A DNA stretch of 64,000 nt from the NCBI GenBank assembly GCA_016783745.1, contig JADHVZ010000005.1, positions 1,178-65,177 on the forward strand, in the 5' to 3' direction. Positions within the stretch are counted from its first letter, which is position 1, and each line of letters begins with the position of its first letter. The notes below the pieces were generated by a model, which saw only the letters and a list, made by a program, of their open reading frames with translations, searched no databases and had not been told where the DNA came from. This document shows, piece after piece, positions 261 to 32,864 of this stretch. The stretch comes from Candidatus Omnitrophota bacterium (GTDB taxonomy: Bacteria > Omnitrophota > Gorgyraeia > JAHIPI01). Position numbers and translations under genes: made by a program.

Positions 261-405
261 CCTCTTTTGTCTTCTATTCCTTGTCTGCACTGTCTGCCTC
301 CTTCTCCTGTCTATTGAGTTTCAAAATTCGTTCTATCTTGCTATATTCTACCTACTTCCAAACCCGCATTGGAGGTAAGTTCAGCAATCCTCCTTATCTT
401 ACCTT

Positions 406-2365: not shown

Positions 2366-2561
2366 AAATATTTTCCTCCTCGACTTTTAATATAAAATAT
2401 CGAAATTGCTTATTTACTCTGTCCTCAGCAGGTTCATATGAAGCCGTTTCCTTAAAACGTTTTTTTAAACGGCTTAAATCAATTTCATGGGCTTTGACTC
2501 TAACAAGAGCCAGGCAATCCTCAAAATCTTGCGAAGCACCTCTAAATATTTTACTAATCAT
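2355..2561 (-). CDS. small hypothetical protein, possibly the C-terminal part of a split nucleotidyltransferase gene
   Basis: 68-aa ORF beginning 47 nt after the stop of the 111-aa NTase-like ORF. Its stop (2355-2357) overlaps the first 11 nt of the 223-aa ORF that starts at 2365. Confidence 0.3.
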   Translation of the reverse strand: MISKIFRGASQDFEDCLALVRVKAHEIDLSRLKKRFKETASYEPAEDRVNKQFRYFILKVEEENIYGQ

Positions 2562-2608
2562 TAAATCATAATAGTTTAAAACTCCTAAATAAATATGAGA
2601 AAACTTTT

Positions 2609-2944
2609 TTAGGGTAATGTTATTTCCTTTATTAAGGGGGATTCTATCAATTTTGTTGTGTGTATACAGTTGTTTTGAAACAGATCAAATATAAAGATTT
2701 CATCTTTTCTTTTCCATCCGGATCCTGTAATTTGCACATATCCAAGATCCTGCAAGTTTTTAATTAAATAATTATAGTCGCTATTAATTGGAATCATAAA
2801 ATCTATATCTATTGTTGATTCCTTAATGTCGAGAAGTGTTAGTGCGGTTCCTCCGCATGCAATGAGATGTATCTTCTTGTGTAAAAATGTATTCCAATTA
2901 GTAAGTATTTTATTTAATTCAGATTTTGTTAGTCTATAATTCAT
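2609..2944 (-). CDS. minimal nucleotidyltransferase-fold protein (GG[ST]...DxD)
   Basis: IACGGTALTLLDIKESTIDIDFMIP matches the G[GS] ... DxD signature of pol-beta-type minimal nucleotidyltransferases. Only 111 aa, possibly truncated by a frameshift. Confidence 0.45.
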   Translation of the reverse strand: MNYRLTKSELNKILTNWNTFLHKKIHLIACGGTALTLLDIKESTIDIDFMIPINSDYNYLIKNLQDLGYVQITGSGWKRKDEIFIFDLFQNNCIHTTKLIESPLIKEITLP

Positions 2945-2958
2945 AACTGTTTACTGTA

Positions 2959-3001
2959 CGTTTTCGTACATATATATGTGCGTTTTCGTACATATATATG
3001 T
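2959..3001. promoter_or_regulatory. two tandem 21/22-bp repeats, each containing the palindrome ACATATATATGT (operator-like)
   Basis: cgttttcgtacatatatatgt(g) occurs twice back-to-back. It sits 15 bp upstream of the NTase-like start codon at 2944. Confidence 0.6.
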
Positions 3002-3267
3002 ATATATCTATACATCTGAATGAAGTATACACTAAGACTGTTGGATTGTCAAGTGGTAGTAGGTAATTACTTGACTTTATACTGACCCCTATTAACAAAT
3101 CAGGTGTTTTAAGGTAGAATATAGCTCTAGAAAGAAAGGAGCTATAGTCTATGAAAAAGCGTAACTACCTTAAAAATCAAATAGTTACGCGTAATTTATT
3201 GCTCTGTTTGGAGTTAGGGAAAGTGTGCCTGTTCAACTCCCCCTTCCGCACCAGTATCTAACGAAAT

Positions 3268-3657
3268 TTATATATAATCCCTTAATTGATCGTTACGTAG
3301 AGCGTCTATTATTTCCTCAATTTCTTTCAAGTATTCCAAAACCTGTTCGCGAAAAGGGCTCTCTGGATATAACTCAAGATTTATTTTAAATTCTACTATT
3401 GCGTTCATATAAGCTTTTGACTCAAAATAATACTCGCCTATTCTGAAGTGTGCTTCATCAGCATATTTAGAATCCGGATAGATAGATGCGATTGAAGTAA
3501 ATTTCATAAACGCAAAATTAGATCTCCCTTGCTTCATGTATTTTATAGCTTCTTTATAAAGTGTCCTAGCCGGGTCGCCACGGCCATCAGCTATGGCCGT
3601 ACATGCCAAGATTATAATGCTGGTAATAATTACTATGTGCTTTCGTCTTGTATTCAA
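3268..3657 (-). CDS. periplasmic TPR-like protein (YbgF/BamD-like fold)
   Basis: Signal peptide is followed by helical repeat sequence (YKEAIKYMKQGR..., FRIGEYYFESKAYMNAIVEF). Confidence 0.45.
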   Translation of the reverse strand: MNTRRKHIVIITSIIILACTAIADGRGDPARTLYKEAIKYMKQGRSNFAFMKFTSIASIYPDSKYADEAHFRIGEYYFESKAYMNAIVEFKINLELYPESPFREQVLEYLKEIEEIIDALRNDQLRDYI

Positions 3658-3873
3658 TTAAATATCCTCTAAGGGCATTGATGTTGTTCCCTTTACGGCG
3701 CGCTGCCTCCCTTTTTTATCATAGAATATTAAATAACCGTCAATAGCCCCGGCGCGCTCCTCTAAAAATAGATATGTCCGCTCTACTTCCATATCGCTGA
3801 TTATAGGCTGACTCGCAAAAGAAAGGTTAGCGATCGATAAGGCAGGAATCAAAGCTAAAAGTATTTTTTTCAT
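3658..3873 (-). CDS. small secreted hypothetical protein
   Basis: 71 aa with signal peptide MKKILLALIPALSIANLSFA. Abuts the neighbouring genes, which suggests co-transcription. Confidence 0.35.
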   Translation of the reverse strand: MKKILLALIPALSIANLSFASQPIISDMEVERTYLFLEERAGAIDGYLIFYDKKGRQRAVKGTTSMPLEDI

Positions 3874-3878
3874 CTTTC

Positions 3879-4412
3879 TCAGTCTCCAAAGATCTCTAAA
3901 TATTCTTTGTCAACAGCCTTGACTCCTTTTTTATGGAGTTCATACCAGTAAAAATCCCTCGATTTGTTATTTTTAATGGCCAGGGCGGTGTGCATGCTAT
4001 CGATATAGAGTATCGACCTCATCAATCCTATCAGCCGTCCGTACTTTTCAAAGTCATCTCCCGATAAAGAAAGAAGGAGGTTATGCAGCAATTTTCCAAG
4101 TGAGTCCATATCATCCAAAGATTCATTTTCGTTTTCTATGTTATATTTTGTCGTTATAGTGGGATCGGGAGGGTCAAAAATAACATTCTTAAAATCCCAG
4201 TATAATGCTTCTATAAGATCTTCTGTTATATCCTTTTCGGATAATTTCGCTATAGCTTCGGCGTCTTCCCATTTTCGCAGGCCTTCTTTTACCCCATCGG
4301 CCTCAAGCTCGACCAAAACTTTTACCGGATCCTCAAGATTTATCTCTCTCTTGTTCGCTTCCGCCACGTGCGGGATCATAAGCAAAAACGATATTACGAT
4401 AAGTGCTCTCAC
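3879..4412 (-). CDS. secreted hypothetical protein
   Basis: 177 aa. N-terminal MRALIVISFLLMIPHVAEA looks like a signal peptide. Confidence 0.45.
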   Translation of the reverse strand: MRALIVISFLLMIPHVAEANKREINLEDPVKVLVELEADGVKEGLRKWEDAEAIAKLSEKDITEDLIEALYWDFKNVIFDPPDPTITTKYNIENENESLDDMDSLGKLLHNLLLSLSGDDFEKYGRLIGLMRSILYIDSMHTALAIKNNKSRDFYWYELHKKGVKAVDKEYLEIFGD

Positions 4413-4428: not shown

Positions 4429-6342
4429 TTACTTCCTGTGCTCATTCAGACTCTCCAGGAACGCGGAATGGATCTCGACCCCATGCTCAATTGCTTTGTC
4501 ACAATGGTAGACGGCGCGCTCGTAATCGCCAGTTTGATAGTATGCAAATGACAGATTATTATGCGCTTCGCCGAAATCAGGGTCTATCTCCAGCGCTTTA
4601 CGATATTCAGCTATAGCCTCCGCGCGCATTTCCTTTTTAGAATAAACATTGGCCAGATTATAATGAGCCTCGGCAAAATCCGGATTGATCTCAAGCGCTT
4701 TTTTATATACAGCGGTCGCTTCGTCAAGCAGGCCTTTTCTGCGATAGGCTATCCCCAGATCGTTATAGGCCTGGTCAAAATCAGGATCTAACTTAATAGC
4801 TTCCTTATATTTTTCTATAGCCTCATCCACGCGATCCTTCCGGTTATACACAAATCCCAGATTATAATGCGCGTAGACGTGATCAGGCTTTATTTCAATC
4901 GCATTTTTATATTCCGCTACGGCCTTATCAAGCTCGCCGCTTCTGGCATAGGCAAGCCCAAGATTATAATGCGCTGTAGGAAAATAATTTTTTGAGTTAA
5001 CCGGGAAATAATCAATATTGACAAACACTGAAAATGCGATAAGCGCCGCTACGTAAAAAGACAGGTCCTTGATCTTTCGGTGTTTCAACAGCTCCCCGAG
5101 ATCAAAAACAGCATAAGAAGCCGAGATAATAAGAAAAGGCGCGCACGGAAAACGATATCTCGCGGACACAAAATAAAGCAACAGTGACAGCATATAAGCT
5201 GCGATAAAAATTATGATCAAGCTTGCGCCCGGCGGCCGCCGCTTAACGGCTAACACAAGCCCCAGCATAGCAAAAGGGGCGATCATGCCGAATGAAAAAA
5301 ACGGTATTTTTAAAACCGGGATATACTTCCTGCAGAAATAGAAGTTAAGGTTTGAGGCGAGCTCCACATTGTTCCAGAATAAAAGAAATTTTCTTCCTAA
5401 GAGAATCAAGAAAAGGCGCGGATTGCCGCCAATAAAACGAAGGCTTTTAGAAAACCAGTAGCGTGAAGCCTCGGAAGAGGTTAGCATCTCTCCGGATTCA
5501 TCCCGGGCAAGCCTTATTGAGTCAGTGATCGAGACAACCGGCAGGTCGGATACACCGCGGACAGGAACGTAGGATCCTGTGGCGCCCGGTGAGTTTCCGA
5601 TATAAAAATTGAACCCTCCCTGAACGGAAAATGGCGAAAATCTTCCCTCTATCGCGTAATTTCTAAATGAGAACGGTGTCAGGATCAGGAGAATTCCCGC
5701 CGTGAAAATAACCGGACGCAGTACCTTCTTAAGGCCTTTTCTATCGAGCGACGCAAACCATACCGCCAGAAGTGGTATAAAAAGAAGCGTATTCGACGTA
5801 ATAAGCGTTGAAGTGGCGGCTATTATGCCGGAGACGAGCCATAAAAAAGGCCTATCCCTGTCTTTAGCGTTAAGTAGAGAAAAGACCAGCAGCAGATTTA
5901 CAAAAACCGAGATCGTGGCCCGCATCAAGAAAGCCGTATAAAAAATTGCCATTGAGTAACAGGCATAGGTAAGGGCCGCCAGCAACCCTATGCCCTTCTT
6001 CTTGAAGGCTCTCACACAGATCATGTATAGTAAAACGCAGCTCAGGGAATCAAGCACGGCCTGTACTATCCCGACGCTTATCAGGCTTCGTCCGGCAACG
6101 GCATATGTCAAGGCAAGAAAGATCGGATAAACCGGGTTCATATAAACGGACTCCTTGAAGGCAATATTGCCTCCAAGGATCTCAAGCGCGATCCTGTTAT
6201 AATGCTGTGAATCCGCGGAAAAGAAATAAAATAGCGGGGTCGACGCTATCTGCCCAAGATAGATAAATCTCAGTATAAGCGCGAGAAACACTATGACAGT
6301 CAATATGACCCAGTGCCTTTTTAATTTGATAGTGATGTTCAT
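4429..6342 (-). CDS. GT-C fold membrane glycosyltransferase with C-terminal TPR array (TMTC-like architecture)
   Basis: N-terminal ~400 aa are multi-pass membrane. C-terminal ~220 aa hold at least 6 TPR units (AHYNLGLAYARSG, AHYNLGFVYNRK, AYNDLGIAYRRKG, AHYNLANVYSKK, AHNNLSFAYYQTG). Confidence 0.55.
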   Translation of the reverse strand: MNITIKLKRHWVILTVIVFLALILRFIYLGQIASTPLFYFFSADSQHYNRIALEILGGNIAFKESVYMNPVYPIFLALTYAVAGRSLISVGIVQAVLDSLSCVLLYMICVRAFKKKGIGLLAALTYACYSMAIFYTAFLMRATISVFVNLLLVFSLLNAKDRDRPFLWLVSGIIAATSTLITSNTLLFIPLLAVWFASLDRKGLKKVLRPVIFTAGILLILTPFSFRNYAIEGRFSPFSVQGGFNFYIGNSPGATGSYVPVRGVSDLPVVSITDSIRLARDESGEMLTSSEASRYWFSKSLRFIGGNPRLFLILLGRKFLLFWNNVELASNLNFYFCRKYIPVLKIPFFSFGMIAPFAMLGLVLAVKRRPPGASLIIIFIAAYMLSLLLYFVSARYRFPCAPFLIISASYAVFDLGELLKHRKIKDLSFYVAALIAFSVFVNIDYFPVNSKNYFPTAHYNLGLAYARSGELDKAVAEYKNAIEIKPDHVYAHYNLGFVYNRKDRVDEAIEKYKEAIKLDPDFDQAYNDLGIAYRRKGLLDEATAVYKKALEINPDFAEAHYNLANVYSKKEMRAEAIAEYRKALEIDPDFGEAHNNLSFAYYQTGDYERAVYHCDKAIEHGVEIHSAFLESLNEHRK

Positions 6343-7871
6343 CGCGGGCCTTCCGCAATAAGTTTCTCTGCTATGCTTCTGTCGTTCTGAAGGCGCGGTA
6401 CTTTATGCTGGCCGCCAAGCTTTCCCTCTGATTTCATCCAGTCGTAAAAAGCCCCTTTTCTCAGCTTGATGACTTCCGGAAGGCCGACACTGATATCTCT
6501 ACCTCTATGCGCGTCATAGTCCGCATTCCCCTCCCGTAAACGCTTGTCCAGATAACGTATGAATCCCTTCGCATCAGATGGCTCTCTGATAAACTCTATC
6601 AACCACTGATGACATGGCAACCTCGACAGATCTTTTCGAAAAAGAGGCGCTACGGTATAATCTTCTATTTTAGAGTCAGTCATTTTACACGCGTAAGATA
6701 TGGCATCATCGGCATCCTTCACTATAAGATGCTCGCCAAAGGCGCTCAAGAAATTTTTTATCCTGCCTGTTACTGTCAATCTGAGCGGATCAAGATCAAC
6801 AAACTTTACCGTGTCGCCAAGTACGTAGCTATACAATCCGCTGTTATTAGTTATTATGATGGCATAATTTTTATTCTTTTCGACTTCGGCAACCGTCAGA
6901 CGCGCGGGATGATCATTATTGATCTCCTCTTCCGGGACAAATTCATAAAAATTCTCATAATCAAGCATTAGAAGCATACCCGGGCCTTCTTTTTTATCCT
7001 GTATAGCCATAAATGCCTCCGAGGCCGGATATATCTCGAGATAATATACATCCTTACCGATGACCTCGCGCAAAAGCTCCCTGTAGGGTGAAAAACTTAC
7101 GCCTCCGTGCACCAGCAGCGAAAGATCAGGCCATACCTCCGCCACAGTCTTGACTCTATTGCCGCTTCTTTTTCCCGCCTCCTCAAGCAATTTACCAAAA
7201 AACACGATCAGCCAGGACGGCACACCGGACAGGCCCCGTATATCCTCATCCACATCTTTTTGCGCTATTTTGCTGATCTTCTCTTCCCAGTCAGGTATAT
7301 GCGCGATCTCTCTACCTGGTTCATAAATGGACTTGAACATCAAAGGTACGGCGCGGGATATTATGCCGCTTAAGTCGCCCGCAAAGGCGCCTTTCTTCAG
7401 CTGTTTTAAGGAGGTGCTTCCTCCTAAAAAAAGAAATTTTCCGTTTAAGATCCGGCGGTCACCGCTTTCGCTTAAATAAAAACTCAGGCAATCCAAAGCG
7501 GCTTTTTTACTGATGGCTATGGAATCTTTTGAGACAGGAATATATTTGTCTCCGGACGTCGTACCTGAGGTAAGAGCAAAATTCCATATCCTGCCCGGCC
7601 ACGTCACGTTAACTCCGCCTTTTATGGCCTTGGCTATCCACGTCCGCATATCTTCATATTGAAAAAGCGGTACGCGCTTACGGTAGGCATCTATTGATTT
7701 GATGGATTTGAAGCCGTATTCCCGCCCGAATTCCGTGTATCTGGCTTTATCCAGGATAGAAAAAAGCGCTTTTTCCTGAAGCCTTAACGGGCGAGAATAT
7801 GTATCTCTTATCTCTTTTACCCGTCTCCGGGCATGCCCGGTAAGGTAAAAGTTAACTATGTTTTTTAGCAT
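6339..7871 (-). CDS. GH3 family acyl-acid amido synthetase homologue (ANL-superfamily adenylating enzyme)
   Basis: ALTSGTTSGDKYIPVS (P-loop-like SGTTSG), YENFYEFVP, YSYVLGDTVKFV and FGEHL motifs are characteristic of the GH3 auxin-responsive family (PF03321). Confidence 0.65.
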   Translation of the reverse strand: MLKNIVNFYLTGHARRRVKEIRDTYSRPLRLQEKALFSILDKARYTEFGREYGFKSIKSIDAYRKRVPLFQYEDMRTWIAKAIKGGVNVTWPGRIWNFALTSGTTSGDKYIPVSKDSIAISKKAALDCLSFYLSESGDRRILNGKFLFLGGSTSLKQLKKGAFAGDLSGIISRAVPLMFKSIYEPGREIAHIPDWEEKISKIAQKDVDEDIRGLSGVPSWLIVFFGKLLEEAGKRSGNRVKTVAEVWPDLSLLVHGGVSFSPYRELLREVIGKDVYYLEIYPASEAFMAIQDKKEGPGMLLMLDYENFYEFVPEEEINNDHPARLTVAEVEKNKNYAIIITNNSGLYSYVLGDTVKFVDLDPLRLTVTGRIKNFLSAFGEHLIVKDADDAISYACKMTDSKIEDYTVAPLFRKDLSRLPCHQWLIEFIREPSDAKGFIRYLDKRLREGNADYDAHRGRDISVGLPEVIKLRKGAFYDWMKSEGKLGGQHKVPRLQNDRSIAEKLIAEGPR

Positions 7872-8625
7872 TATCGCTATTTTTTAAAAAATCTGTCAAA
7901 TGCCTGTTAAATTCATCCGGCTTTTCTATCATCGGGGCGTGCCCGCAGCCGTTTATAAAAACAAGTTTTGAGTTTCTTATGTTTGCGTTGAATATGTGGG
8001 CCACTTCCGACGGGGTGATAATATCGTTCTTGCCCCAGATAAGCAGTGTATCACATGTAATAAGCGATAGCTGGCCGGAGAGGTTATATCTTTTGGCTGA
8101 TTTAGACATCCGAATGATCTTCAATTTTAACATCCTGGACTTAAGCTGATTGTAAGCGCTTTCTATCAGCCTGTCGCTCACAAAACTTTTATCATAAAAG
8201 ACCTCCCCTATTTTTCTGGTAAGATATTCCCTGGTAGGATGTATCTGGACATCATCCGCGTAACCCCTTTCAAACAGCCCGGAACTCCCGGTTAAAACAA
8301 GATTCCTGATAGGCTCTTTATGGTTTATCGCGTAATCTAAGGCTATATGGCCCCCGAGAGAATTTCCGATCAACGTCACGTCACGAAGCCTTTTCTGATC
8401 TATGAAACGCGCCAGAAACTCCGTCATCACTCTCACTGAACACAATTTAGGCTCAAGCTCCAGATAAGGCAACCCCAGAACGATCGTCCTGTACGATTTA
8501 GATAGAGTTTTTACAACCGGGGCCCAGTTTGATAATTCGCCGAACATGCCATGCAGCATTATGATCGGACTACCCGCGCCTTCTTCAATATAATCATATT
8601 TTGAGTCTAATGACATTAACCCCAC
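7852..8625 (-). CDS. alpha/beta-fold hydrolase
   Basis: GNSLGG (GxSxG nucleophile elbow). HGMFG oxyanion region near N-terminus. His in GCGHAPM near C-terminus. Confidence 0.7.
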   Translation of the reverse strand: MGLMSLDSKYDYIEEGAGSPIIMLHGMFGELSNWAPVVKTLSKSYRTIVLGLPYLELEPKLCSVRVMTEFLARFIDQKRLRDVTLIGNSLGGHIALDYAINHKEPIRNLVLTGSSGLFERGYADDVQIHPTREYLTRKIGEVFYDKSFVSDRLIESAYNQLKSRMLKLKIIRMSKSAKRYNLSGQLSLITCDTLLIWGKNDIITPSEVAHIFNANIRNSKLVFINGCGHAPMIEKPDEFNRHLTDFLKNSDNAKKHS

Positions 8626-10385
8626 TACTCCTTGTTAGATATAAGAAATACCCGCTCTTTAAGTGAATGACGCAAGAGGTCTCTTTTTCCTTCAAAAATA
8701 TAGCCGGTCAGATCTAAAAAATACTGCATGTCCTGTTTGTGAAACTTCTTCCATACAGAAAATTCATCAAGAATATAAAGCCTTTCCCTCAATCCCTCTC
8801 CAAGGTATTCATAATAGTCATCTTTCGTGATAACACAAAATACCCTCCCTTCCGCCGGTAAAATGAAATTTACGATGAGATCCTTCTGCTGGGTCCACAA
8901 TGTTATGCGACTCGGCACCACCCTCACTACTTTATATTCTTCAAGCAACGCGTTCAACCTGTTATAACTGACTTCGCTCGAGGCGACACCCACTGAATCA
9001 TCCTGCTTGATGAGATACCTTATTTTGCCGGTGACATCTTCCAGAGGCTCTTTGCCGGCAGTAGGCACGATATATCCGGCAAAATACGCAAAAAAAGCGA
9101 ACGAAGCGGCAAAAAAACTTATAGGAAGCAATGTCCTATTTTTCTTTAAGTACGCGTAGAGCATAAACGCGGGTACTGCCAGCATAAGAAGCGACAAAGA
9201 AAAAATAGCCTCACCCAAAACATAAGAAACAAAACCCAGCCATAATAATGCGCCGAGAAAAAAGGCCGCGATCCCGAATAAGAAGGGTAGTTTATATAAA
9301 ATATTCTTCACAGGATCTCCATGCTCGGTAAGGCTTGAAAAATATCTTCCCAAAAGAAGGGATACCGGCACTGAAAGAGCAAGGACATAGTAGCTTTCTT
9401 TAGACCATACAAGTACCAAAGATATAAACACGGCAATACACCATGCGGCTATAAGGGTAAGTCCCCACTCCCTTCCCTTTTTTCTTAAAGCATATCTTTG
9501 CACGGTAACAAGCGAAGCAGGTAAAAATAATGACCAGGGTAGATGCCTTGCGAAAAGCATTCCAATATAGTAAAACGAGGCCTTAAAATAATGAACCGGT
9601 AGATTGATCTCGGTTCCCGACGAAAAATATTTCACTTTCTTCATTATCTCCATGGTCCACACATTGCCGATATAGGCATCTCCATGAAGAAGGGTCATTA
9701 CGATAAACCATGGCGCGCTGACCGCGGCAAATATGAGAAGGCCAAGAGGAAATCTGATCTCTCTGAGCGCCTTCCATTCTTTTCTCATCGCGAGAAACAG
9801 GCAAACCGTAAATATGGGATAAAAAAAACCCAAAGGCCCTTTTGTAAGCATGGCCAGGCCCATGGGTATATACATATATAAATACCTGGCGCCGCCCTTT
9901 ATATCGCCCCGATAAGCTTTAATAAACAAATAAACGGACGCGGTCATGAATAAATAAAATGTCATATCAGGCGTCGAAAAACGTGAATACATAAAGTATA
10001 CTTCGCTTGTCGAAAGAATAAAGGCGGAAAACAGTCCTGTCCTTCTGTTAAACAGGCTCGCCCCTATCAAATAGATCAGCACCACACAGCCCAGAGAGGC
10101 TAAGATAGAAGGAAATCTGGCGCCGTATATGCCCACGCCCCAGATTTTGTATGAGAGCATTATCAGCCAGTAGAACAGGATAGGTTTTTGAAAACGCAGT
10201 TTACCGTGGTATCGCGGAGTAACATAATCCCCGCTTTCTACCATCTCTTTTGTGCTTTGGATATATCTTTTTTCGTCCGGGATGGAATGGCCGAGGCGCA
10301 CCCTGTCCAGAGAATACAGCCCGAAAAGCGCCAGTACTAATACCAACACTATTATAGCCTCTTTGGACAGGTGCCTGAGATCCAT
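8625..10385 (-). CDS. ArnT/PMT_2-like GT-C glycosyltransferase (GT83/GT39-like), paralogue 1
   Basis: DEKRYIQSTKEMVESGDYVTPRYHGKLRFQKPILFYWLIM matches the ArnT/PMT signature (DE.RY...MxxxGDW..P...G..xxEKPPLxYW). About 12 TM segments. Confidence 0.75.
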   Translation of the reverse strand: MDLRHLSKEAIIVLVLVLALFGLYSLDRVRLGHSIPDEKRYIQSTKEMVESGDYVTPRYHGKLRFQKPILFYWLIMLSYKIWGVGIYGARFPSILASLGCVVLIYLIGASLFNRRTGLFSAFILSTSEVYFMYSRFSTPDMTFYLFMTASVYLFIKAYRGDIKGGARYLYMYIPMGLAMLTKGPLGFFYPIFTVCLFLAMRKEWKALREIRFPLGLLIFAAVSAPWFIVMTLLHGDAYIGNVWTMEIMKKVKYFSSGTEINLPVHYFKASFYYIGMLFARHLPWSLFLPASLVTVQRYALRKKGREWGLTLIAAWCIAVFISLVLVWSKESYYVLALSVPVSLLLGRYFSSLTEHGDPVKNILYKLPFLFGIAAFFLGALLWLGFVSYVLGEAIFSLSLLMLAVPAFMLYAYLKKNRTLLPISFFAASFAFFAYFAGYIVPTAGKEPLEDVTGKIRYLIKQDDSVGVASSEVSYNRLNALLEEYKVVRVVPSRITLWTQQKDLIVNFILPAEGRVFCVITKDDYYEYLGEGLRERLYILDEFSVWKKFHKQDMQYFLDLTGYIFEGKRDLLRHSLKERVFLISNKE

Positions 10386-10387
10386 CT

Positions 10388-10654
10388 TTACGCCTTAGCT
10401 TCTTTATGGCGGTTTATTAAAACGAGATTCCTCAGATAAATAATAACCCCGCAAGCTTGGCCGATAGTAAATACGATATCCTTACGGTAGAATGCGGCGT
10501 ATACGAACAGGATAACACTGCCTAATATGCTAAAATACCAGAAAGATACAGGGATAACACTCTTCTTTTGCCTTTCGGAATGCAGCCATTGAACAAAAAA
10601 CCTCATAAAGAAAAAGAATTGCCCTATGAATCCAAAAATGATCCAGTTATTCAT
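10388..10654 (-). CDS. small membrane protein, lipid-A-disaccharide synthase N-terminal (LAB_N)-like partner of GT2
   Basis: 88 aa, three predicted TM helices. Size and position (immediately downstream of the GT2 DPM1-like gene, upstream of a GT-C) match the LAB_N family commonly paired with such GT2 enzymes. Confidence 0.45.
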   Translation of the reverse strand: MNNWIIFGFIGQFFFFMRFFVQWLHSERQKKSVIPVSFWYFSILGSVILFVYAAFYRKDIVFTIGQACGVIIYLRNLVLINRHKEAKA

Positions 10655-10665
10655 CTCTCCTCCGT

Positions 10666-11367
10666 CTATATCCAGCTTTTTCGATTAAAAATCAACGTTA
10701 AAAAATCGTATGAGACTTTAAACGGCCTTGTGAAGCCGTATTTTGACTTGCCGTGATCGCGGGACCTGTGGTTAACTTTTATCTCAGAACCCTTCTTCCC
10801 CTTCATCATCAATAAATAGGGTATAAACCTATGGGCGCCGTTTCTCTTGAGGGGTAAGGCCTCTACAGCCTCTCTGGTATAAGCCCTCAACGTGCACGAT
10901 ATGTCATGAAGGTGGCTCTTAAAGACATTACCCTGTATAAGATTCGCTAATTTTGAGGTTATCTTCTTGGATGCCGGGTCTTTCCTGTTATAGCGCCAGC
11001 CGCATACAAAATCATAGCCCTTCTTTAATTCCTCTAAAAGGCTGGGTATATCCTGAGGATCATTCTGCATGTCACCGTCCAGAGACACGGCAACCTTTCC
11101 CCGCACTTTTCCGAAACCGGCCTCAAGCGAAACTGTCTGCCCCCGCTTCTTCTCAGAATGTACAAGTACTACCTTGTCATCGCGCTCTTTTATTTCCTTC
11201 AATAGCGGATAGGTGCCGTCGGTGGATCCGTCATTAATGAAAATAAGCTCGTAAGGGGCCCTTAACACGTCCATCGCCCTTTTGACGGACTCATAAAGTA
11301 TTGTCACGGACTCCTCTTCGTTATAAAAAGGGACAACTATTGAATATTCGATATTGGAATCGGCCAT
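10666..11367 (-). CDS. GT2 polyprenyl-phosphate glycosyltransferase (ArnC/DPM1/GtrB-like)
   Basis: YSIVVPFYNEEESV, FINDGSTDGT and DGDMQNDP (DxD) are typical of the GT2 DPM1-like family. Confidence 0.75.
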   Translation of the reverse strand: MADSNIEYSIVVPFYNEEESVTILYESVKRAMDVLRAPYELIFINDGSTDGTYPLLKEIKERDDKVVLVHSEKKRGQTVSLEAGFGKVRGKVAVSLDGDMQNDPQDIPSLLEELKKGYDFVCGWRYNRKDPASKKITSKLANLIQGNVFKSHLHDISCTLRAYTREAVEALPLKRNGAHRFIPYLLMMKGKKGSEIKVNHRSRDHGKSKYGFTRPFKVSYDFLTLIFNRKSWI

Positions 11368-11369
11368 CT

Positions 11370-13100
11370 CTACTCCCGGTTACTTACTACATAGATCTCG
11401 TTCTGAAAGATCTCTCTAAAAGCCCTCCCTAACGAATCTTGCAGCTCATCATCAAATCTTATCCTTCTTTTCCAAACGTAATAACTGCCCAGTATGCGCA
11501 GATCTCCTTTTTTCTTATCCGAAACAAAATCTTCGTAATCTTTTTTCTTTATAACGCAAAATATCTTTTTTTTAGAACCCAGAAACCTCTCAAGCGGATA
11601 TGCGGTATCGAGACCCGGTGTACCGTCAGCTTTACGCCTGGCCTTGACATTCTCTACAGGCGTGTCAAAAAAAGCCTGCAGCTCCTCCGGGATTATGCCG
11701 TGTGAGCCTATGCCTATGCCATCCCCCTCCTTGAATTCGCCCTTGATCACCAGCGCCGCCCGCTCCATCTTGTTTGTAAGCAGTCCAAAAGGCGCTGATA
11801 CTGTCATAGCGCAATACAGGATCGAAAGCGATAGAGCTATGCTTGCCGGCGCAAATATATCATTTCTATTGCGATATCCGAATATCAAGACAGCAGGCAC
11901 GGTAAGCAACACAAGTTTCCATGCGGGTATCATGCTGCCGTCCATAATAACGTCTGAAAAAATGAACGCTACGGCAAAAATCCCTAATCCGGCAAGGGTA
12001 ACTAAAAAAGGGATCCTAAAAAACGCCCGATTAAAAGACTTACCGTCAGAAAGAACAGCGCTGAACATGCTTCCAAGCAATATTGATATTGCCGGTGATA
12101 GCGCCAGTAAATAATGCGTTCTTCTTTCCGCCACAAACGTAAAAAATAAAAACACTGTGACGGCCCATAAACACAAAAAAAGATGAGCGTCTTTCACTCT
12201 CCCGGAAGACCCTTCTGAAGCACGGCCTGATAAAACAGAAGAGCTTCTTATGAGCGCGGCCGGCAAAAAAAGTGAGTACGGAAGAAATTTAGTCGCCAGA
12301 GCGCTGAGATAAAAGGCGAATCCCTTAAAGTACGTGATAAAAAAACATTCCCGGCAGTCCTGGCCCAGACGTTGAGATATTTCTCTGACCCAGATGTGGT
12401 TTAAGTATGCCTGTCCGTGCGTCCTGTACATCGTATAAAACCACGGTATTACAATGATAAAAAATACGGCAATACCGGCCAATATGTCAACAGCCCTGAA
12501 GGGATTCTCTCTCTTGACCAGACAAAAGATCGAGATTATAAGTAAAGGCACTATAATGCCGACCGGACCCTTGACTAAAAAGGCCGATGCCAGAGCCAGA
12601 AAAAAAATAAATAGGCTTTTTTTTCCGGTCCCATCCCCGCGTAACCTTAAGAAACTGTATAGCGCCGCTGTAATAAAAAAAATCAGCGCCATATCCGGAA
12701 GGGCAAGCCTCGCGTATCTGTAATAAAGAGGGGTCGTCATAAGAAGCAGAGACGCGATCACACCCGTTTTCTTGTCTCCAAAAAGTATATTCGATAATGC
12801 AAAAACTATTAGAGCAAGTAACGCGCCGAATATTATAGACGGCAGCCTGGCAGCATACCAGTTCGCGCCTAAAACCTTAAAAGAAGCGAGGATCATCCAG
12901 TAAAAGAAAACCGGTTTTTGAAAGCGGGGTTCGCCCATATACCGAGGCGTTAACAGGTCTCCGCTTTCCATCATCTCTTTCGCGCTTTCAAAGTAGAAAT
13001 TCTCGTCTCCTTTGAATTCATGGCTAAGCTTGCCGGCGCCGAAAGAAAATAAAAAAAGACTGAATGCGAGGATTATTATCCCGTAAGGCCGCTTGATCAT
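11370..13100 (-). CDS. ArnT/PMT_2-like GT-C glycosyltransferase, paralogue 2
   Basis: GDENFYFESAKEMMESGDLLTPRYMGEPRFQKPVFFYWMIL signature. Polytopic membrane protein. Confidence 0.7.
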   Translation of the reverse strand: MIKRPYGIIILAFSLFLFSFGAGKLSHEFKGDENFYFESAKEMMESGDLLTPRYMGEPRFQKPVFFYWMILASFKVLGANWYAARLPSIIFGALLALIVFALSNILFGDKKTGVIASLLLMTTPLYYRYARLALPDMALIFFITAALYSFLRLRGDGTGKKSLFIFFLALASAFLVKGPVGIIVPLLIISIFCLVKRENPFRAVDILAGIAVFFIIVIPWFYTMYRTHGQAYLNHIWVREISQRLGQDCRECFFITYFKGFAFYLSALATKFLPYSLFLPAALIRSSSVLSGRASEGSSGRVKDAHLFLCLWAVTVFLFFTFVAERRTHYLLALSPAISILLGSMFSAVLSDGKSFNRAFFRIPFLVTLAGLGIFAVAFIFSDVIMDGSMIPAWKLVLLTVPAVLIFGYRNRNDIFAPASIALSLSILYCAMTVSAPFGLLTNKMERAALVIKGEFKEGDGIGIGSHGIIPEELQAFFDTPVENVKARRKADGTPGLDTAYPLERFLGSKKKIFCVIKKKDYEDFVSDKKKGDLRILGSYYVWKRRIRFDDELQDSLGRAFREIFQNEIYVVSNRE

Positions 13101-13104
13101 GATA

Positions 13105-13797
13105 TCATTCTTTATTTTGCTTTATACCGGTATTAGCGAGCGCGGATATAAATGCCGCCAGAAAGAACGATTCCCCCATGACCTTCGCGGAGTCTTCGGC
13201 CATCCTGAAAATATCCCGTGTGTGCAATAAATCGGAGTAAGGGGCATCTGAGAAGAACTGAGTAAATGACTCAACGCTGTTTGTGATATAGTCCAGGCAG
13301 AACATGGTAAAGAACATGAGAAACCCGCATACCAGCATAAGGATCATGTAAGGGTGTTTCCTGAATTCCCTGATAAAATCCTTTATAAAAACTATTGCCA
13401 CCAGTCCGTAGATCAAAACGATAACATCGTCAATATGATCGGTCATGGTAGTCTCTTTGATAAACAATACATGGTGTATTAATTTATCTATATTCTCATG
13501 AAGGGACAGTATCTCATCCAGCCCCAGAAAAATAAAACCTATTCCGCATATAAGAAATGGGCGCGCCGAGGCGTTCTTTCGCCAGTTTAAAGAAAATTCA
13601 GGTTCAACGGCCTTACAAATAAGATAGCACGTAAAGGCAGTGGCAAGCAGCTGTAAAAACGAGTATATAGTCACAAGCCTCACGTCCGCAAAATGGTAAA
13701 AGAACGGCCCTGTATTCCATGATATTAAAAGTACGGCGGCGGCCGCCAAAACGGTTAAGCTTATATAAAGATTTATTTTAACATTTTTATTTGGCAA
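13105..13797 (-). CDS. polytopic membrane protein, hypothetical
   Basis: 230 aa, 6-7 hydrophobic segments. No recognisable motif. Embedded between two ArnT-like genes. Confidence 0.45.
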   Translation of the reverse strand: MPNKNVKINLYISLTVLAAAAVLLISWNTGPFFYHFADVRLVTIYSFLQLLATAFTCYLICKAVEPEFSLNWRKNASARPFLICGIGFIFLGLDEILSLHENIDKLIHHVLFIKETTMTDHIDDVIVLIYGLVAIVFIKDFIREFRKHPYMILMLVCGFLMFFTMFCLDYITNSVESFTQFFSDAPYSDLLHTRDIFRMAEDSAKVMGESFFLAAFISALANTGIKQNKE

Positions 13798-15553
13798 TCG
13801 TGAGCTCCTTGCTTGTTAAAAGATATATTTCATGCCTAAGCACATCTTTCAGGATGTCTTTTTCGCCCCGCAATATCTGCAATATTACGTCCTTGCCAAA
13901 ACTTCTCTTAAGCCTTGTTTTCCAGGTTTTGCGGTTATCCATAAGGTTCAACCTGACCCTCAATTCATCCGGCAGAATCGTTTCGTAATCCTGCCTGGAG
14001 ATCACCAGATAGACATCGCTGCCTGAGTTCATAAATTCCGTCAGTCTGCTCTGATGCAGCCCCTTAGGATCATACCCCTTCTTCCATCTTACATTTGGTT
14101 CATCGATGCGCTTGTCCAAGTATATAGAAAGCCTCTGCTGGCTTATATTCATCGATCCTACGCCTACCCTATCGCCTTCCCTCAATTCCCGCTCTATCTC
14201 TTCCGCAAAGCCCCGCATCGTGTTATCATTCAAAAGAGGGATGGCCCTTCCCCCTAAAAATGCCATCAATATGCCCATCGCTATGGGAATCGCCGCAAGA
14301 ATCATTTTTTTCCTCTTCATCATGTAGGGGACGATCAGAATAAGAGGGCTAAAAAGAATAGCGTATTCATAGAAAGCTACCGTGTTCGGATAAAGATGGT
14401 TCATCGTATAAAGCAGGATGACTAGAGTCAATATATAAACTATGACAATTAAGAAAAACGGGATCCTGAAGCCCCAGCTTTTAAATAAGGCGCCTCGTTC
14501 CTGCAGGTTGATCAGATATCTTGCCACAAGCAGGGCAAGCGCGGGGGCTATAGGCAGCATATAATGGTACTCTTTCACGGAGATCACCGTAAAAAATAAA
14601 AATATTCCGAAGAAATAGCTCAGCACGAGCTTATATGAATCTTTTTCGCGGGAATATGTATTCTTGCTTCTGAACGCGTCAAAAATGGACTGCGGCAGAA
14701 ACAGAGAATACGGAGCAAGCCATCCCGCTAAAATAGGGATATAATACAGGATCCGCTTAAAATAGATCTTTACGAATTCCAGGCCTTTTTCATTGTCCGG
14801 GGCGTAAAACATCCTCATCATAGTCTCCCGCACGACAATATGGTCAAGATACTTCTGGCCGTGCAGTTTATACATGACGATATACCATGGCAGCCCTATA
14901 GCGAGGATGATCAAAAAACCCATGGGCAAATTCATGGATTTGAGAAGCTTCCATTTTTTCGTGCTGCACACAAACAACAGTACTATAATAAGCGGGAGCG
15001 CAAAACCTACATAACCTTTGTTTAAAGTGGCAAGGCCCAAAACGATGAAAAAGAAGATAAAAAACCTCCTGCCTCCATCCATGCTCTTCGAGCCTTTTAA
15101 AAACAGGTACATCGAATAAGCTACGAAAAACGTCAAGACCATATCGGGAGAAGCGTATCTGGCGTACATAAAAAATAAAGCGATAGTCGCGAGTATGCCG
15201 GCCGCCAGAAAACCGGTCTTGCGGTCGAATAGCCTGCGGCCTATGTTGAAGGTAAATATGACTGTAAGCATTCCGAAGATGGCTGAAGGAAAGCGGACCC
15301 CGAAATTATCGATCCCGAAGATAGCGTAAGAAGCACTGACCAGCCAGTAGAAAAGAATGGGTTTTTGGAATCTGAAGCGTCCCTGGTAGTAAGGCGTGAT
15401 AAAGTCGTGCCTGGCAAACATCTCCTTTACGCTTTGAAAGTAAAACTTCTCACTCTCTATAATAGGCAAGGCGGTGCCCAGGTGATATGTAAACAATATA
15501 CCGCAAAAAACCAACAATATTATTTTTATAAGTAACTCTCTTCTTCTCAACAC
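13787..15553 (-). CDS. ArnT/PMT_2-like GT-C glycosyltransferase, paralogue 3
   Basis: SEKFYFQSVKEMFARHDFITPYYQGRFRFQKPILFYWLVS signature. Confidence 0.7.
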   Translation of the reverse strand: MLRRRELLIKIILLVFCGILFTYHLGTALPIIESEKFYFQSVKEMFARHDFITPYYQGRFRFQKPILFYWLVSASYAIFGIDNFGVRFPSAIFGMLTVIFTFNIGRRLFDRKTGFLAAGILATIALFFMYARYASPDMVLTFFVAYSMYLFLKGSKSMDGGRRFFIFFFIVLGLATLNKGYVGFALPLIIVLLFVCSTKKWKLLKSMNLPMGFLIILAIGLPWYIVMYKLHGQKYLDHIVVRETMMRMFYAPDNEKGLEFVKIYFKRILYYIPILAGWLAPYSLFLPQSIFDAFRSKNTYSREKDSYKLVLSYFFGIFLFFTVISVKEYHYMLPIAPALALLVARYLINLQERGALFKSWGFRIPFFLIVIVYILTLVILLYTMNHLYPNTVAFYEYAILFSPLILIVPYMMKRKKMILAAIPIAMGILMAFLGGRAIPLLNDNTMRGFAEEIERELREGDRVGVGSMNISQQRLSIYLDKRIDEPNVRWKKGYDPKGLHQSRLTEFMNSGSDVYLVISRQDYETILPDELRVRLNLMDNRKTWKTRLKRSFGKDVILQILRGEKDILKDVLRHEIYLLTSKELTIAK

Positions 15554-15640
15554 TTCTGCCCCTGCCTTTATAAATTATATATTAAGATAACATACTATTA
15601 TCTTTATTTCAAGGCTAAAATTAGCATGTAATATAATTAT

Positions 15641-15752
15641 AAGGGGACAGACACTTTTTTTGAAGCATAGGGACAGACACTTTTTTGAGGCTACGTACAG
15701 AGCTTCAAAAAAGTGTCTGTCCCTGACAACGCTACAAAAAAAGTGTCCCCTT
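15641..15752. terminator. nested long palindrome (19-bp perfect inner stem plus about 17-bp outer stem), possible bidirectional terminator/regulatory hairpin
   Basis: gggacagacacttttttga ... tcaaaaaagtgtctgtccc are perfect inverted repeats. The outer pair aaggggacagacacttttttt ... aaaaaaagtgtcccctt is also inverted. Lies between the stop of the TMTC-like gene and the start of ArnT paralogue 3. Confidence 0.45.
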
Positions 15753-15757
15753 ATTCC

Positions 15758-17560
15758 CTAATTAACTTCCCTGAGGATCGCGGCGGATTTTTCTATATAA
15801 CCGGCATTATAATATGCCTTACTGAGATTGGAGCAGGAAGATCCGTTCCTTCGAATAGAAAGAGCCTTTTCGAAATGGTATATGGCATCGTCAAACATAT
15901 CCCGCTTGTCGAACAAGAAGCCAAGATTCGCATGTGCTTCATAAAATCCCGGCAATAGAGTTACGGCTTTTTTATACTCGGCCAGAGCCTCATCCTCCTT
16001 CCCTTTCTTCTCATAAAGCCAGCCAAGGCCGTTATGAGCGAAGGGGTGTTCAGGGTCGATCTCAAGAGCCTTTTTAAAATTCTTCTCCGCGATACCGTAG
16101 TCTTCAATGCTCATACTGGCTGTTGCGATATTAGTATAGATTTCTGCCTTTTCCGGCCCGCTATTCAAAGCATAATTATAATATGTCAGGGCTTTCTCAA
16201 AATCCTTGTTCTTTTCATAGATAGTACCGATATTGTAATACATCTTCGCTTTTTTGGGAGATGACTTAAGCGTGGCGGAATATATTGAAAGGTCGTCCTT
16301 CCAGTCCCTGTTGCGCATGAATGTCCTGAATGAATAAAGCGAGACTATGACCGCAAAAAAAGCTATAGCAAATTTAAGATCTATTTTCAGAGACTGGAGC
16401 CTTAAAAGCATCACGCTTATTATCATAAGAAAACCTATTGAGGGTATATACAGCCAGTGCTCAGCCATCTGCGCGCTCAGAGGCACTATATTCGAAAAGG
16501 GTATTAAAAAAGTTAAAAACCACGCTATTCCGAAAAATATCGCGCGTGATCTTTTATATGCGGCCACAGCTAAAAATATGATAAAAGCTAATCCCAGTAT
16601 TGAAAACACGCTATTCATATCAAAGATCGAGCGAGCCAGAGGAATGGCCCTCTCCATATGAAGGTCCGCCGGATAAAGGAGAAGCCCGATATAATCCATG
16701 ACTGTGCGGCACATCGTCAGAAGCTGCGCGCTTACAGTGGAGATGTTAGAAAAAACGTCGTTTTTCGGGGAAAAATCGAATATTGTAAGGCGTAACGTTA
16801 TATAAACCGCGCTGACCAGCAGATAGGGCCGTAATTTTCTGAACCGGGAAAGCCTGTTGCTTCCTCCTCTGTCAACGCTGACCCGTTTGCCATATGTAAG
16901 ATCATGCAATGCGAGCACCAGGGGAAATATTATAACAGACGCCTTCGACAGGAGGGCAAGGATATACATCGCTACAGATATCGGATAAAGCGCTCTTTTT
17001 TTTCTGGCGATGACATTATGCACGGAGTCCGGCTCATCATCCTTCTTTACAAGCTTCTCCTCAGGCGCTATCGAATAACGCCCCACATACGCTATGAAAG
17101 ACAATAAAAGAAAAAAGCACGCGAGGATATCAGAACGGCCCGTTAAATAATTAACCGCTCCGGTATGAACCGGGTGCACCAAAAAAAGTATGCTTGTAAG
17201 CAATGAGGCCATCCGGGATTTGCATAAAAAAAAGATGGTGAAAAAAACCAGTACGCCATTGGCAAAATGCAGCAGCACGTTAGTCAGATGGAAGCCGAAG
17301 GGGTTCAGTTTCCAAATATGGTAATCGATCAAAAACGAAACAGCCTGGACAGGCCTGTAATAATTACTATGGTCGAGCCCGAATTTTTCCACGTGCGAGT
17401 GATACAGGTCAGTAACAAATATTTTAGGGATGTATTTTACGTGAGTTATCAAGTCGTTATTCTCGATTGTGAGATGGTCATCCCACACAAAGGAATGGCT
17501 TAGTGAATTAAAATACACGGTCAGCGTGATCACGGCAAGCAGAAGAATTATTTTTTTCAT
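15758..17560 (-). CDS. TMTC-like membrane protein: N-terminal GT-C-type polytopic domain (FVWDDH acidic motif) plus C-terminal TPR array
   Basis: FVWDDH close to the N-terminus, followed by about 10 TM segments. C-terminal TPRs (AKMYYNIGTIYEKN, AEIYTNIATASMS, AHNGLGWLYEKKG, AHANLGFLFDKR). Confidence 0.55.
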   Translation of the reverse strand: MKKIILLLAVITLTVYFNSLSHSFVWDDHLTIENNDLITHVKYIPKIFVTDLYHSHVEKFGLDHSNYYRPVQAVSFLIDYHIWKLNPFGFHLTNVLLHFANGVLVFFTIFFLCKSRMASLLTSILFLVHPVHTGAVNYLTGRSDILACFFLLLSFIAYVGRYSIAPEEKLVKKDDEPDSVHNVIARKKRALYPISVAMYILALLSKASVIIFPLVLALHDLTYGKRVSVDRGGSNRLSRFRKLRPYLLVSAVYITLRLTIFDFSPKNDVFSNISTVSAQLLTMCRTVMDYIGLLLYPADLHMERAIPLARSIFDMNSVFSILGLAFIIFLAVAAYKRSRAIFFGIAWFLTFLIPFSNIVPLSAQMAEHWLYIPSIGFLMIISVMLLRLQSLKIDLKFAIAFFAVIVSLYSFRTFMRNRDWKDDLSIYSATLKSSPKKAKMYYNIGTIYEKNKDFEKALTYYNYALNSGPEKAEIYTNIATASMSIEDYGIAEKNFKKALEIDPEHPFAHNGLGWLYEKKGKEDEALAEYKKAVTLLPGFYEAHANLGFLFDKRDMFDDAIYHFEKALSIRRNGSSCSNLSKAYYNAGYIEKSAAILREVN

Positions 17561-32265: not shown

Positions 32266-32334
32266 CTCTGCGAGATAACAAACAATTCGAGAGCACATGC
32301 AATATTTATGGAGCGAGAGGATTATCAACATCGC

Positions 32335-32802: not shown

Positions 32803-32864
32803 AATAAATCAGGGACAGGCACCGATTGAATGGCACCTGTCCCTCTATTGTACCTTCTTCTCCC

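Follow-up and report, generated by a model that had tools for sequence, protein, structure and literature searches.

Results

Gene content of the cluster

We analyzed a 64,000-nucleotide (nt) stretch of a Candidatus Omnitrophota genome (assembly GCA_016783745.1, contig JADHVZ010000005.1, positions 1,178 to 65,177), referred to below as the window, and focused on a minus-strand gene cluster at 4429-17560 that is predicted to act on the cell envelope. The host phylum is a candidate phylum with very few cultured members. An initial annotation made from the DNA sequence alone had described this region as a glycosylation cluster with five membrane glycosyltransferases (GTs) of the GT-C type and had proposed that the combination was not a described pathway. 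An open reading frame (ORF) check recovered all ten of its ORFs at the same coordinates, each on the minus strand. Scans with Pfam and NCBIfam, which form the basis of all family assignments here, likewise reproduced its families: three ArnT-like proteins of the PMT_2/PMT type, a family 2 GT (GT2), LAB_N, GH3, an alpha/beta-hydrolase (ABH), and two proteins with tails of tetratricopeptide repeats (TPRs). The genes listed were real, but a membrane protein ORF of 230 amino acids (aa) at 13105-13797, here called TM230, had been overlooked. In the direction of transcription, the genes are as follows (TM, transmembrane).

15758..17560, minus strand: TPR-GT-C 2, GT-C domain (residues 1 to ~420) followed by a C-terminal TPR array; strong TPR matches in Pfam.

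13787..15553, minus strand: ArnT-like paralogue 3 (ArnT3), 588 aa; PMT_2 81 bits, PMT 77 bits, NCBIfam ArnT 142 bits.

13105..13797, minus strand: TM230, 230-aa polytopic membrane protein between ArnT2 and ArnT3; no Pfam or NCBIfam match.

11370..13100, minus strand: ArnT-like paralogue 2 (ArnT2), 576 aa; PMT 74 bits, PMT_2 66 bits, NCBIfam ArnT 110 bits.

10666..11367, minus strand: short GT2, 233 aa, of the ArnC/GtrB/DPM1 type; Glycos_transf_2 111 bits, NCBIfam ArnC 156 bits, DGDMQND motif.

10388..10654, minus strand: LAB_N small membrane protein, 88 aa, ~3 TM segments; Pfam LAB_N 105 bits.

8625..10385, minus strand: ArnT-like paralogue 1 (ArnT1), 586 aa; PMT_2 84 bits, PMT 70 bits, NCBIfam ArnT 129 bits.

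7852..8625, minus strand: ABH, ~254 aa; Abhydrolase_1 75.5 bits; overlaps GH3 by 20 nt.

6339..7871, minus strand: GH3-family ATP-dependent amide synthetase, OlsH-like; GH3 N, M, and C domains in Pfam, NCBIfam OlsH match.

4429..6342, minus strand: TPR-GT-C 1, 637 aa, PMT_2-family GT-C with C-terminal TPR; PMT_2 36.9 bits (cut-off 26.1), strong TPR matches.

From ArnT3 to a 177-aa ORF that follows TPR-GT-C 1, the genes are packed with intergenic distances of -20 to +16 nt, including overlaps at ArnT1/ABH (-1 nt), ABH/GH3 (-20 nt), and GH3/TPR-GT-C 1 (-4 nt).

A conserved core and separable modules

Related loci were compared by gene order and by the amino-acid identity of their GH3 protein to that of the window (GH3 identity).

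L084, GH3 identity 76%: ten-gene order identical to the window.

L085, GH3 identity 68%: window order up to the contig end.

L005, GH3 identity 73%: ArnT1-hydrolase-GH3-TPR-GT-C 1.

L016, GH3 identity 61%: ArnT3-TM230-ArnT2-GT2-LAB_N-ArnT1-hydrolase-GH3 kept; neither TPR-GT-C gene.

L019, L021, and L022: core present; no detectable hydrolase or GH3 after ArnT1; the L021 contig starts in TM230.

L020: core up to GT2, where the contig ends; no upstream TPR-GT-C 2.

L017 and L018, GH3 identity 49% and 47%: hydrolase-GH3 alone, distant from any GT-C gene.

Bacteroidota loci, GH3 identity ~35%: no cluster genes nearby.

The neighborhood conservation that the initial annotation had suggested as a check is borne out across related Omnitrophota loci: the six-gene order ArnT3-TM230-ArnT2-GT2-LAB_N-ArnT1 is syntenic in L016, L019, L020, L021, L022, L084, and L085, as far as the contigs run. 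The order ArnT1-ABH-GH3 is kept in L005, L016, L084, and L085, and TPR-GT-C 1 follows GH3 in L005 and L084 and is missing from L016. Because the hydrolase-GH3 pair and the core each occur without the other, and the TPR-GT-C genes vary among relatives, the cluster divides into three modules: a conserved six-gene glycosylation core, a hydrolase-GH3 pair, and variable TPR-GT-C accessories. The self-contained hydrolase-GH3 pair joined the core only in one subclade. We consider it probable that the locus is a composite envelope-remodeling array, combining a polyprenyl-phosphate-sugar glycosylation module, an OlsI/OlsH-like aminolipid module, and TPR-GT-C add-ons, and not one new pathway.

In a single integrated pathway, GH3 and the hydrolase would instead modify the glycosylation product or the lipid-linked donor; GH3 might, for example, amidate the carboxylate of a uronic acid with an amino acid, and the hydrolase might transfer or remove an acyl group. 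The overlapping genes from ArnT1 through ABH and GH3 to TPR-GT-C 1 and the ArnT1-ABH-GH3 order of the four relatives speak for such a scheme, and the ATP-dependent joining of a carboxylate to an amine by GH3 enzymes would permit it. We nevertheless find it quite unlikely: ABH-GH3 has no GT-C or GT2 neighbor in L017 and L018, the core lacks a detectable ABH/GH3 after ArnT1 in L019, L021, and L022, and the model of OlsH, which uses fatty acids, fits the window GH3 far better (E = 3.6e-140) than any other NCBIfam model does. The occurrence of the pair away from GT-C genes in these distant relatives, L017 and L018, also weakens the original suggestion that GH3 and the hydrolase contribute an added step to glycosylation.

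Three ArnT-like paralogues

By sequence, ArnT1, ArnT2, and ArnT3 are true paralogues, with pairwise identities of 30-31% over the whole length (blastp E = 1e-79 to 1e-89). In related loci, each is matched by a separate orthologue (45-72% identical overall; 66-72% for ArnT3 in L016, L019, L020, and L022), whereas the paralogues are mutually ~30% identical. Because each keeps its own conserved orthologue, the three appear to be non-redundant. The signature that they had been proposed to share, DE..Y...M.SGD..TPRY.G..RFQKP..FYW, is complete in ArnT1 and ArnT2, but ArnT3 has SEK for DE., ARHD for SGD, and TPYY for TPRY.

A PDB sequence search with ArnT1 gave a sole match, the lipid A transferase ArnT of C. 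metallidurans (5EZM/5F15, E = 2.2e-24), with which the first periplasmic (catalytic) loop of ArnT1, PDE.RY...KP..W, aligns. The equivalents of ArnT K85, D158, and Y345 (K67, D140, and Y333) are invariant across the three paralogues, and R270 is possibly replaced by K268. None of the genes arnA, arnB, and arnD for 4-amino-4-deoxy-L-arabinose (Ara4N) synthesis, nor arnE/arnF, was found among the cluster or flanking genes.

The short GT2 and LAB_N

The short GT2 is predicted to be a polyprenyl-phosphate monosaccharide synthase. It aligns to positions 8-226 of the 316 in the ArnC profile, which is the catalytic part only; the C-terminal TM helix pair of ArnC/GtrB is missing, and zero TM segments are predicted. 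The idea, already present in the initial annotation, that an ArnC/DPM1-type GT2 would feed several GT-C enzymes fits the families found, their tight packing, and the precedents of Arn, Rgt, and Gtr. LAB_N, encoded next to GT2, has orthologues that score 104-105 bits on the Pfam LAB_N profile.

A metagenome scan with the LAB_N profile yielded 63 loci, 49 of them with enough upstream sequence and 43 assessed downstream. A GT2 gene stands immediately before LAB_N in 39 of the 49 (median gap 1 nt; median GT2 length 237 aa), and an ArnT-like gene lies downstream in 29 of the 43, with two or three such genes in some loci. The GT2-LAB_N-ArnT triad is widespread in metagenomes.

Among these records, L033-L055 (ODxx/OEGN and ERZ77xxxx) carry GT2-LAB_N and then two or three ArnT-like genes. 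Identity to the window is ~38% for GT2 and ~55-60% for LAB_N. By record name they are apparently human-gut assemblies, and the label of L048 reads human gut metagenome.

Accidental juxtaposition, without shared regulation, at a variable chromosomal spot downstream of guaA and the pur genes would account for the varying content between guaA and ArnT3 (purL/purQ and TPR-GT-C 2 are present or absent), for the varying downstream content, and for the separate occurrence of the modules. It is very unlikely to explain the cluster, since the order and tight spacing of the six-gene core are kept across relatives whose orthologues are 45-72% identical, and chance would hardly place GT2 beside LAB_N, with a median gap of 1 nt, in 39 of 49 unrelated loci.

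With regard to function, we infer that LAB_N is a membrane partner that replaces the TM hairpin of ArnC/GtrB. The LAB_N profile has been placed in one grouping with the PQ-loop proteins; MPDU1, a member of that family, is required for every GT-C reaction that depends on dolichyl phosphate (Dol-P)-monosaccharides (PMC3281891). We treat a flippase-like role for LAB_N only as a hypothesis because the PQ-loop relation was not reproduced at the sequence level. In chlamydiae, LAB_N is fused to LpxB, which favors an anchoring role at least as much as flipping; LAB_N is not known from experiment to flip or to anchor, and the literature searched contained no experimental study of a TM-less GT2 paired with LAB_N.

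A more specific proposal, which we find doubtful and offer tentatively, is that GT2 and LAB_N form a two-subunit polyprenyl-phosphate-sugar synthase in which LAB_N, as a half-size PQ-loop-type protein, anchors the catalytic subunit and passes the lipid-linked sugar across the membrane. If so, GT2-LAB_N would correspond in bacteria to DPM1 together with MPDU1 and would provide a simple genetic system for how Dol-P-mannose and undecaprenyl-phosphate (Und-P)-monosaccharides reach GT-C enzymes. The pairing leads to a testable hypothesis on how lipid-linked monosaccharide donors are made and presented.

TM230

TM230 has ~5-6 TM helices and eight invariant acidic or histidine residues (D94, H100, E101, D104, H108, E115, D120, and D123); by the positive-inside rule, this Asp/Glu/His cluster probably faces the periplasm. 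A structure model (predicted local distance difference test score, 79.7) gave no specific structural relative when compared with the PDB. Of the 21 homologues returned by a word-index search, all those on inspected contigs lie in core synteny. An exhaustive profile search extended the family to 1035 cluster representatives, and three distant members were found in unrelated gene contexts. TM230 is a member of a sizeable unnamed membrane-protein family.

One distant member from the profile search, P0307 (409 aa), is fused to a GGDEF diguanylate-cyclase domain, which hints that the TM230 domain can serve as an input module, sensing or binding a ligand, and is not necessarily enzymatic.

The hydrolase-GH3 pair

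The GH3 protein is predicted to be an N-acyl amino acid (lyso-aminolipid) synthetase. It scores 467.9 bits on the NCBIfam OlsH model (E = 3.6e-140), below the cut-off of 620, and carries the nucleotide-binding motifs M1-M3 of OlsH (TSGTTSGDKY at 101, YPASE at 281, and GLYSYVLGD at 345). Both serines mutated in the OlsH study (S115 and S293 equivalents) are present. The Ser-Asp-His triad of ABH is intact, with GNSLGG, D, and H conserved in five orthologues that always lie directly upstream of GH3, and by analogy with OlsI, ABH is a candidate O-acyltransferase. We regard the pair as OlsH/OlsI-like in mechanism without assigning it to either equivalog family.

In the planctomycete Singulisphaera acidiphila, work from 2025 showed that OlsH and OlsI, an alpha/beta-hydrolase, constitute a third ornithine-lipid pathway. 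OlsH converts a free fatty acid, ATP, and ornithine to N-acyl-ornithine, and OlsI adds the second acyl chain; in planctomycetes, olsH and olsI lie in one operon, and homologues from elsewhere may accept amino acids other than ornithine (PMC12493201).

Two further observations were made on this pair in relatives. At L016 9235-10020, gene calling splits ABH into fragments of 80 and 149 aa, although tblastn aligns 248 residues; this split hydrolase could reflect a frameshift, a pseudogene, or an assembly error. At L017 9270-13395, on another Omnitrophica contig, hydrolase-GH3 lies directly upstream of a Na/Pi cotransporter gene and PhoU, a phosphate-gene context that fits a phosphorus-free aminolipid made under phosphate limitation.

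The TPR-tailed GT-C proteins

The initial annotation had counted five GT-C proteins. Four of them match PMT and PMT_2 best in Pfam, and the fifth, TPR-GT-C 2 (15758-17560), proved to be one by profile comparison and structure modeling, Pfam alone missing its N terminus. The N-terminal 435 residues of this protein have no Pfam match even at E <= 10, DUF1736 included. Its N-terminal family profile matches the ArnT-paralogue profile (93% probability, E = 2.7e-7), and a confident structure model shows a GT-C fold resembling that of yeast Pmt2 and Pmt4. More than 1100 homologues were found, mostly annotated merely as Omnitrophica TPR proteins. In the homologue alignment, FVWDD, YRP, HP, R..D, and AEHW are invariant or near-invariant, and FVWDD, HSNYYRP, LVHPVHT, D144, and K206 are invariant or nearly so in 68 homologues.

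TPR-GT-C 1 (4429-6342) matched the ArnT profile in hhalign (79% probability, E = 1.6e-5) and lacks the TMTC motifs, including DD. Of the two TPR-tailed proteins to which the eukaryotic TMTC architecture was originally assigned, 15758-17560 combines the GT-C fold and TPRs with DD, YRP, VHPxHT, D/K, and AE(H) motifs, and 4429-6342 is a different, PMT_2-type TPR fusion that has no DD. The label TMTC-like is a fair one for 15758-17560, judging from its motifs and model.

These features raise the alternative of periplasmic protein O-glycosylation, a bacterial counterpart of PMT/TMTC in which the five GT-C enzymes would act mainly on proteins selected by the TPRs and by the C-terminal domains of the ArnT-like enzymes. 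The PMT/PMT_2 assignments of four of the five, the TMTC motifs and Pmt2/Pmt4-like fold of 15758-17560, and the common peptide-binding role of TPR domains all point this way. The ArnT-like paralogues, however, have the lipid A transferase ArnT as their sole PDB match and best NCBIfam match, the characterized bacterial multi-paralogue sets (Rgt) act on lipopolysaccharide (LPS), variation within the cluster falls on the TPR-GT-C genes, and the conserved core contains no candidate acceptor protein. We therefore judge protein O-glycosylation to be unlikely as the main function.

Transcription units and genomic setting

TPR-GT-C 2 starts 4 nt inside the end of purQ and is separated from ArnT3 by a 204-nt gap, which contains the following element.

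15630..15757, minus strand: nested inverted-repeat element, in the 204-nt gap between TPR-GT-C 2 and ArnT3.

The 15-mer AAAAGTGTCTGTCCC occurs in three exact copies within this element and nowhere else in the window (0.07 expected), and the RNA has a minimum free energy of -66.9 kcal/mol (z = -12.7). Promoter-like hexamers lie just downstream of the repeat at 15664..15636 and 15612..15584, and a hairpin resembling a terminator lies past the last small ORF (3190..3159), all as pattern matches. In L020, at 8030-8100, a classical terminator hairpin with a similar GGGGACAG stem occupies the same position, and four other relatives have none. The element is likely to be a terminator or attenuator ending the guaA-pur-TPR-GT-C unit, and it could also be a protein operator. 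The pattern matches suggest two transcription units, guaA-pur-TPR-GT-C 2 and ArnT3 to ~3160. The genes had been placed in one and the same unit; this holds from 15553 downwards, but 15758-17560 is set apart by the gap with its stable nested hairpin.

Downstream of TPR-GT-C 1 lie three further co-directional genes.

3268..4412, minus strand: three small ORFs of 177 aa (signal-like N terminus), 71 aa, and 129 aa, tightly packed after TPR-GT-C 1.

The 129-aa ORF has a weak YfiO/TPR match (31 bits). The 177-aa and 129-aa ORFs gave zero tblastn matches in L005 or L016-L083, and none of the three is among the genes called downstream of TPR-GT-C 1 in L084. Because they are missing in every relative with sequence downstream of TPR-GT-C 1, the small ORFs are probably not part of the glycosylation/aminolipid system. 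The interval 2001-4000 of the window is low in GC (32.8% versus 43-50% elsewhere) and holds small ORFs without an assigned family.

By sequence, the window is 99.9% identical to a metagenome contig of 77.7 kb in ENA, and proteins identical to its GH3, TPR, and TM230 proteins are filed at NCBI as Candidatus Omnitrophica bacterium. The surroundings are those of an ordinary chromosome, with guaA, purSL, and purQ immediately upstream and polyamine synthesis genes elsewhere in the window. The GC content of the cluster is 43-45%, versus 45-50% in the remainder of the window, and guaA synteny is kept. The window also encodes two resistance-nodulation-division (RND) pumps, accompanied by a membrane-fusion protein, and gave one weak BamD-like match; both would fit a two-membrane (diderm) cell. 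An Rfam scan of the window gave zero matches.

Several neighboring features were recorded. A cassette resembling a diversity-generating retroelement lies just beyond the window start (L001 17734-21300) and encodes a 530-aa protein of the FGE-sulfatase fold, bAvd, and an RVT_1 reverse transcriptase; window positions 1-290 (minus strand) are the 5' part of its first gene, and the phage-like genes Phage_phiTE_241_C and BppU_IgG adjoin it. A 1101-aa ORF on the minus strand (24180-27485), for which Pfam gave nothing at E <= 1e-5, adjoins a GH2-TIM/CBM9 protein (27502-29748). Genes for a membrane-bound [NiFe] hydrogenase of the Mbh/Mrp type lie at 32300-45000 and 47089-50560 along with hypD and hypE; HypF consists only of the Kae1-like C-terminal part (378 aa), and a Rex regulator is encoded at 45026-45817.

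Discussion

Proposed organization of the array

In the composite array that we favor, the short TM-less GT2 would make a polyprenyl-phosphate monosaccharide at the cytoplasmic face of the membrane. The 88-aa LAB_N would be its obligate membrane partner, substituting for the C-terminal TM hairpin of ArnC/GtrB, and may also help to expose the product on the other membrane face. There, at the periplasmic face, the three anciently diverged ArnT-family enzymes would transfer the sugar, each to a different acceptor position. By analogy with ArnC/ArnT and with RgtE and RgtA-D,F, the acceptors would most likely be lipid A/core or another envelope glycoconjugate, and TM230 would be a lineage-specific accessory. 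Independently of glycosylation, GH3 would adenylate a fatty acid and amidate it with an amino acid, and the hydrolase-fold enzyme would add a second acyl chain to give a phosphorus-free aminolipid. The two TPR-GT-C enzymes would be variable add-ons that probably use the same kind of lipid-linked donor, with TPR arrays selecting macromolecular, possibly protein, acceptors. More speculatively, and in our view doubtfully, the aminolipid encoded in the same operon might itself serve as a glycosylation acceptor in this Omnitrophota clade.

The analysis establishes the families and folds, motifs, synteny, modularity, and gene packing, and the donor sugar, acceptors, amino acid, membrane topology, and role of LAB_N are inferred. 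Several observations weigh against this interpretation or parts of it. Every NCBIfam equivalog cut-off is missed (ArnT 110-142 of 567 bits, ArnC 156 of 529, OlsH 468 of 620, and OlsI 95 of 385), and as a consequence, no cluster protein can be named the orthologue of a characterized enzyme. The equivalent of ArnT D55 is kept in two of the three paralogues and absent from ArnT3, and Gln replaces ArnT E84 in all three. The score of ABH on the OlsI model is no better than its scores on unrelated alpha/beta-hydrolase models. LAB_N has no PQ-loop/MtN3 Pfam match at E <= 10, so its link to PQ-loop proteins rests on the literature, and the LAB_N profile matched nothing in the PDB, including PQ-loop and SemiSWEET structures. 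Genes for sugar-nucleotide synthesis and lpx genes were not seen in the window, and the gene context therefore ties the cluster neither to a particular sugar nor to LPS as an acceptor. Finally, the core and hydrolase-GH3 genes are tightly packed, with overlapping stops and starts, in the window and in its three closest relatives (L005, L084, and L085), and a functional link between the two modules is possible.

The claim that the cluster is not a described pathway fails because its parts belong to described kinds, namely ArnC/ArnT-, Rgt-, OlsH/OlsI-, and TMTC-like systems. GH3, at 468 bits, and the hydrolase resemble the OlsH/OlsI route of aminolipid synthesis (PMC12493201), Rgt is a precedent for one GT2 with several ArnT-like enzymes, and the GT2-LAB_N-ArnT order is common in metagenomes. 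The locus reduces to two recognizable biochemistries, lipid-linked-sugar glycosylation and GH3-dependent aminolipid synthesis. What is new here is the composite Omnitrophota arrangement, the GT2-LAB_N partnership as a hypothesis, and TM230. The GH3/hydrolase aminolipid module extends into Omnitrophota, which, like the planctomycetes, are related to the Planctomycetes-Verrucomicrobia-Chlamydiae (PVC) group. Its placement in an envelope operon here, and beside phosphate-transport genes in L017, suggests coordinated envelope remodeling.

Comparison with known systems

The lipid A aminoarabinose system likewise pairs an ArnC-type GT2 with a GT-C enzyme, and the first periplasmic loops of the GT-C enzymes align. 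The cluster here differs in having three GT-C paralogues instead of one, a GT2 without the TM hairpin, no ArnA/B/D tailoring genes, and no ArnE/F flippase, and its scores are far under the equivalog cut-offs.

A closer parallel in organization is the Rgt system. One GT2 that synthesizes the lipid-linked sugar serves several ArnT-like paralogues (among them RgtA-D), each with its own acceptor position, and the GT2 and GT-C genes are clustered. In rhizobia, RgtE is the GT2, and RgtA, B, C, D, and F are ArnT-like galacturonosyltransferases acting on the LPS core and lipid A (PMC5644692). The cluster differs from Rgt in the presence of a LAB_N partner and TM230, and the likeness is at the family level; no PAP2 phosphatase of the LpxE/LpxF type was detected. 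RgtF was considered as a small partner protein and was dropped, as the literature shows it to be a 549-aa GT-C.

The division of labor also recalls the three-component Gtr systems for glucosylation of O-antigen (the GT2 GtrB, the flippase GtrA, and a Gtr-type GT-C), in which a GT2 on the cytoplasmic face makes a lipid-phosphate-monosaccharide, a small membrane helper assists, and a GT-C enzyme transfers the sugar on the far side. LAB_N, however, is not GtrA (PF04138), and GtrB carries two TM helices of its own, whereas the short GT2 has none. No GtrA-family match was found in the cluster; LAB_N and the TM-less GT2 occupy those places. In the endoplasmic reticulum, the corresponding parts are DPM1/DPM3 and MPDU1. 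The short GT2 resembles DPM1 in lacking a TM segment of its own, and LAB_N resembles MPDU1 in having been grouped with PQ-loop proteins.

For the hydrolase-GH3 pair, the closest likeness is OlsH/OlsI: a GH3 amide synthetase with the same three nucleotide-binding motifs adjoins an alpha/beta-hydrolase in one operon. Here, the hydrolase precedes GH3, there is no olsG methyltransferase, the pair is embedded in a glycosyltransferase array, and the scores stay at 468 of 620 bits (OlsH) and 95 of 385 (OlsI).

Human TMTC1-4, protein O-mannosyltransferases that use Dol-P-mannose to modify Ser/Thr residues, are characterized by DD, SHKSYRP, VHPxHT, D/K, AERV, and a DUF1736/DW loop, the loop being detected by Pfam at E < 1e-30 (PMC7801869). 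Like them, 15758-17560 joins a GT-C membrane domain to a C-terminal TPR array, with the loop-1 DD, HSNYYRP for the TMTC SHKSYRP, ILFLVHPVHT for the TMTC3 LLFAVHPIHT, and D169/K219 equivalents. Unlike them, it has no DUF1736 match or DW motif, has AEHW where TMTC has AERV, and would use a bacterial polyprenyl-phosphate sugar as donor, and 4429-6342 belongs to another PMT_2 subfamily.

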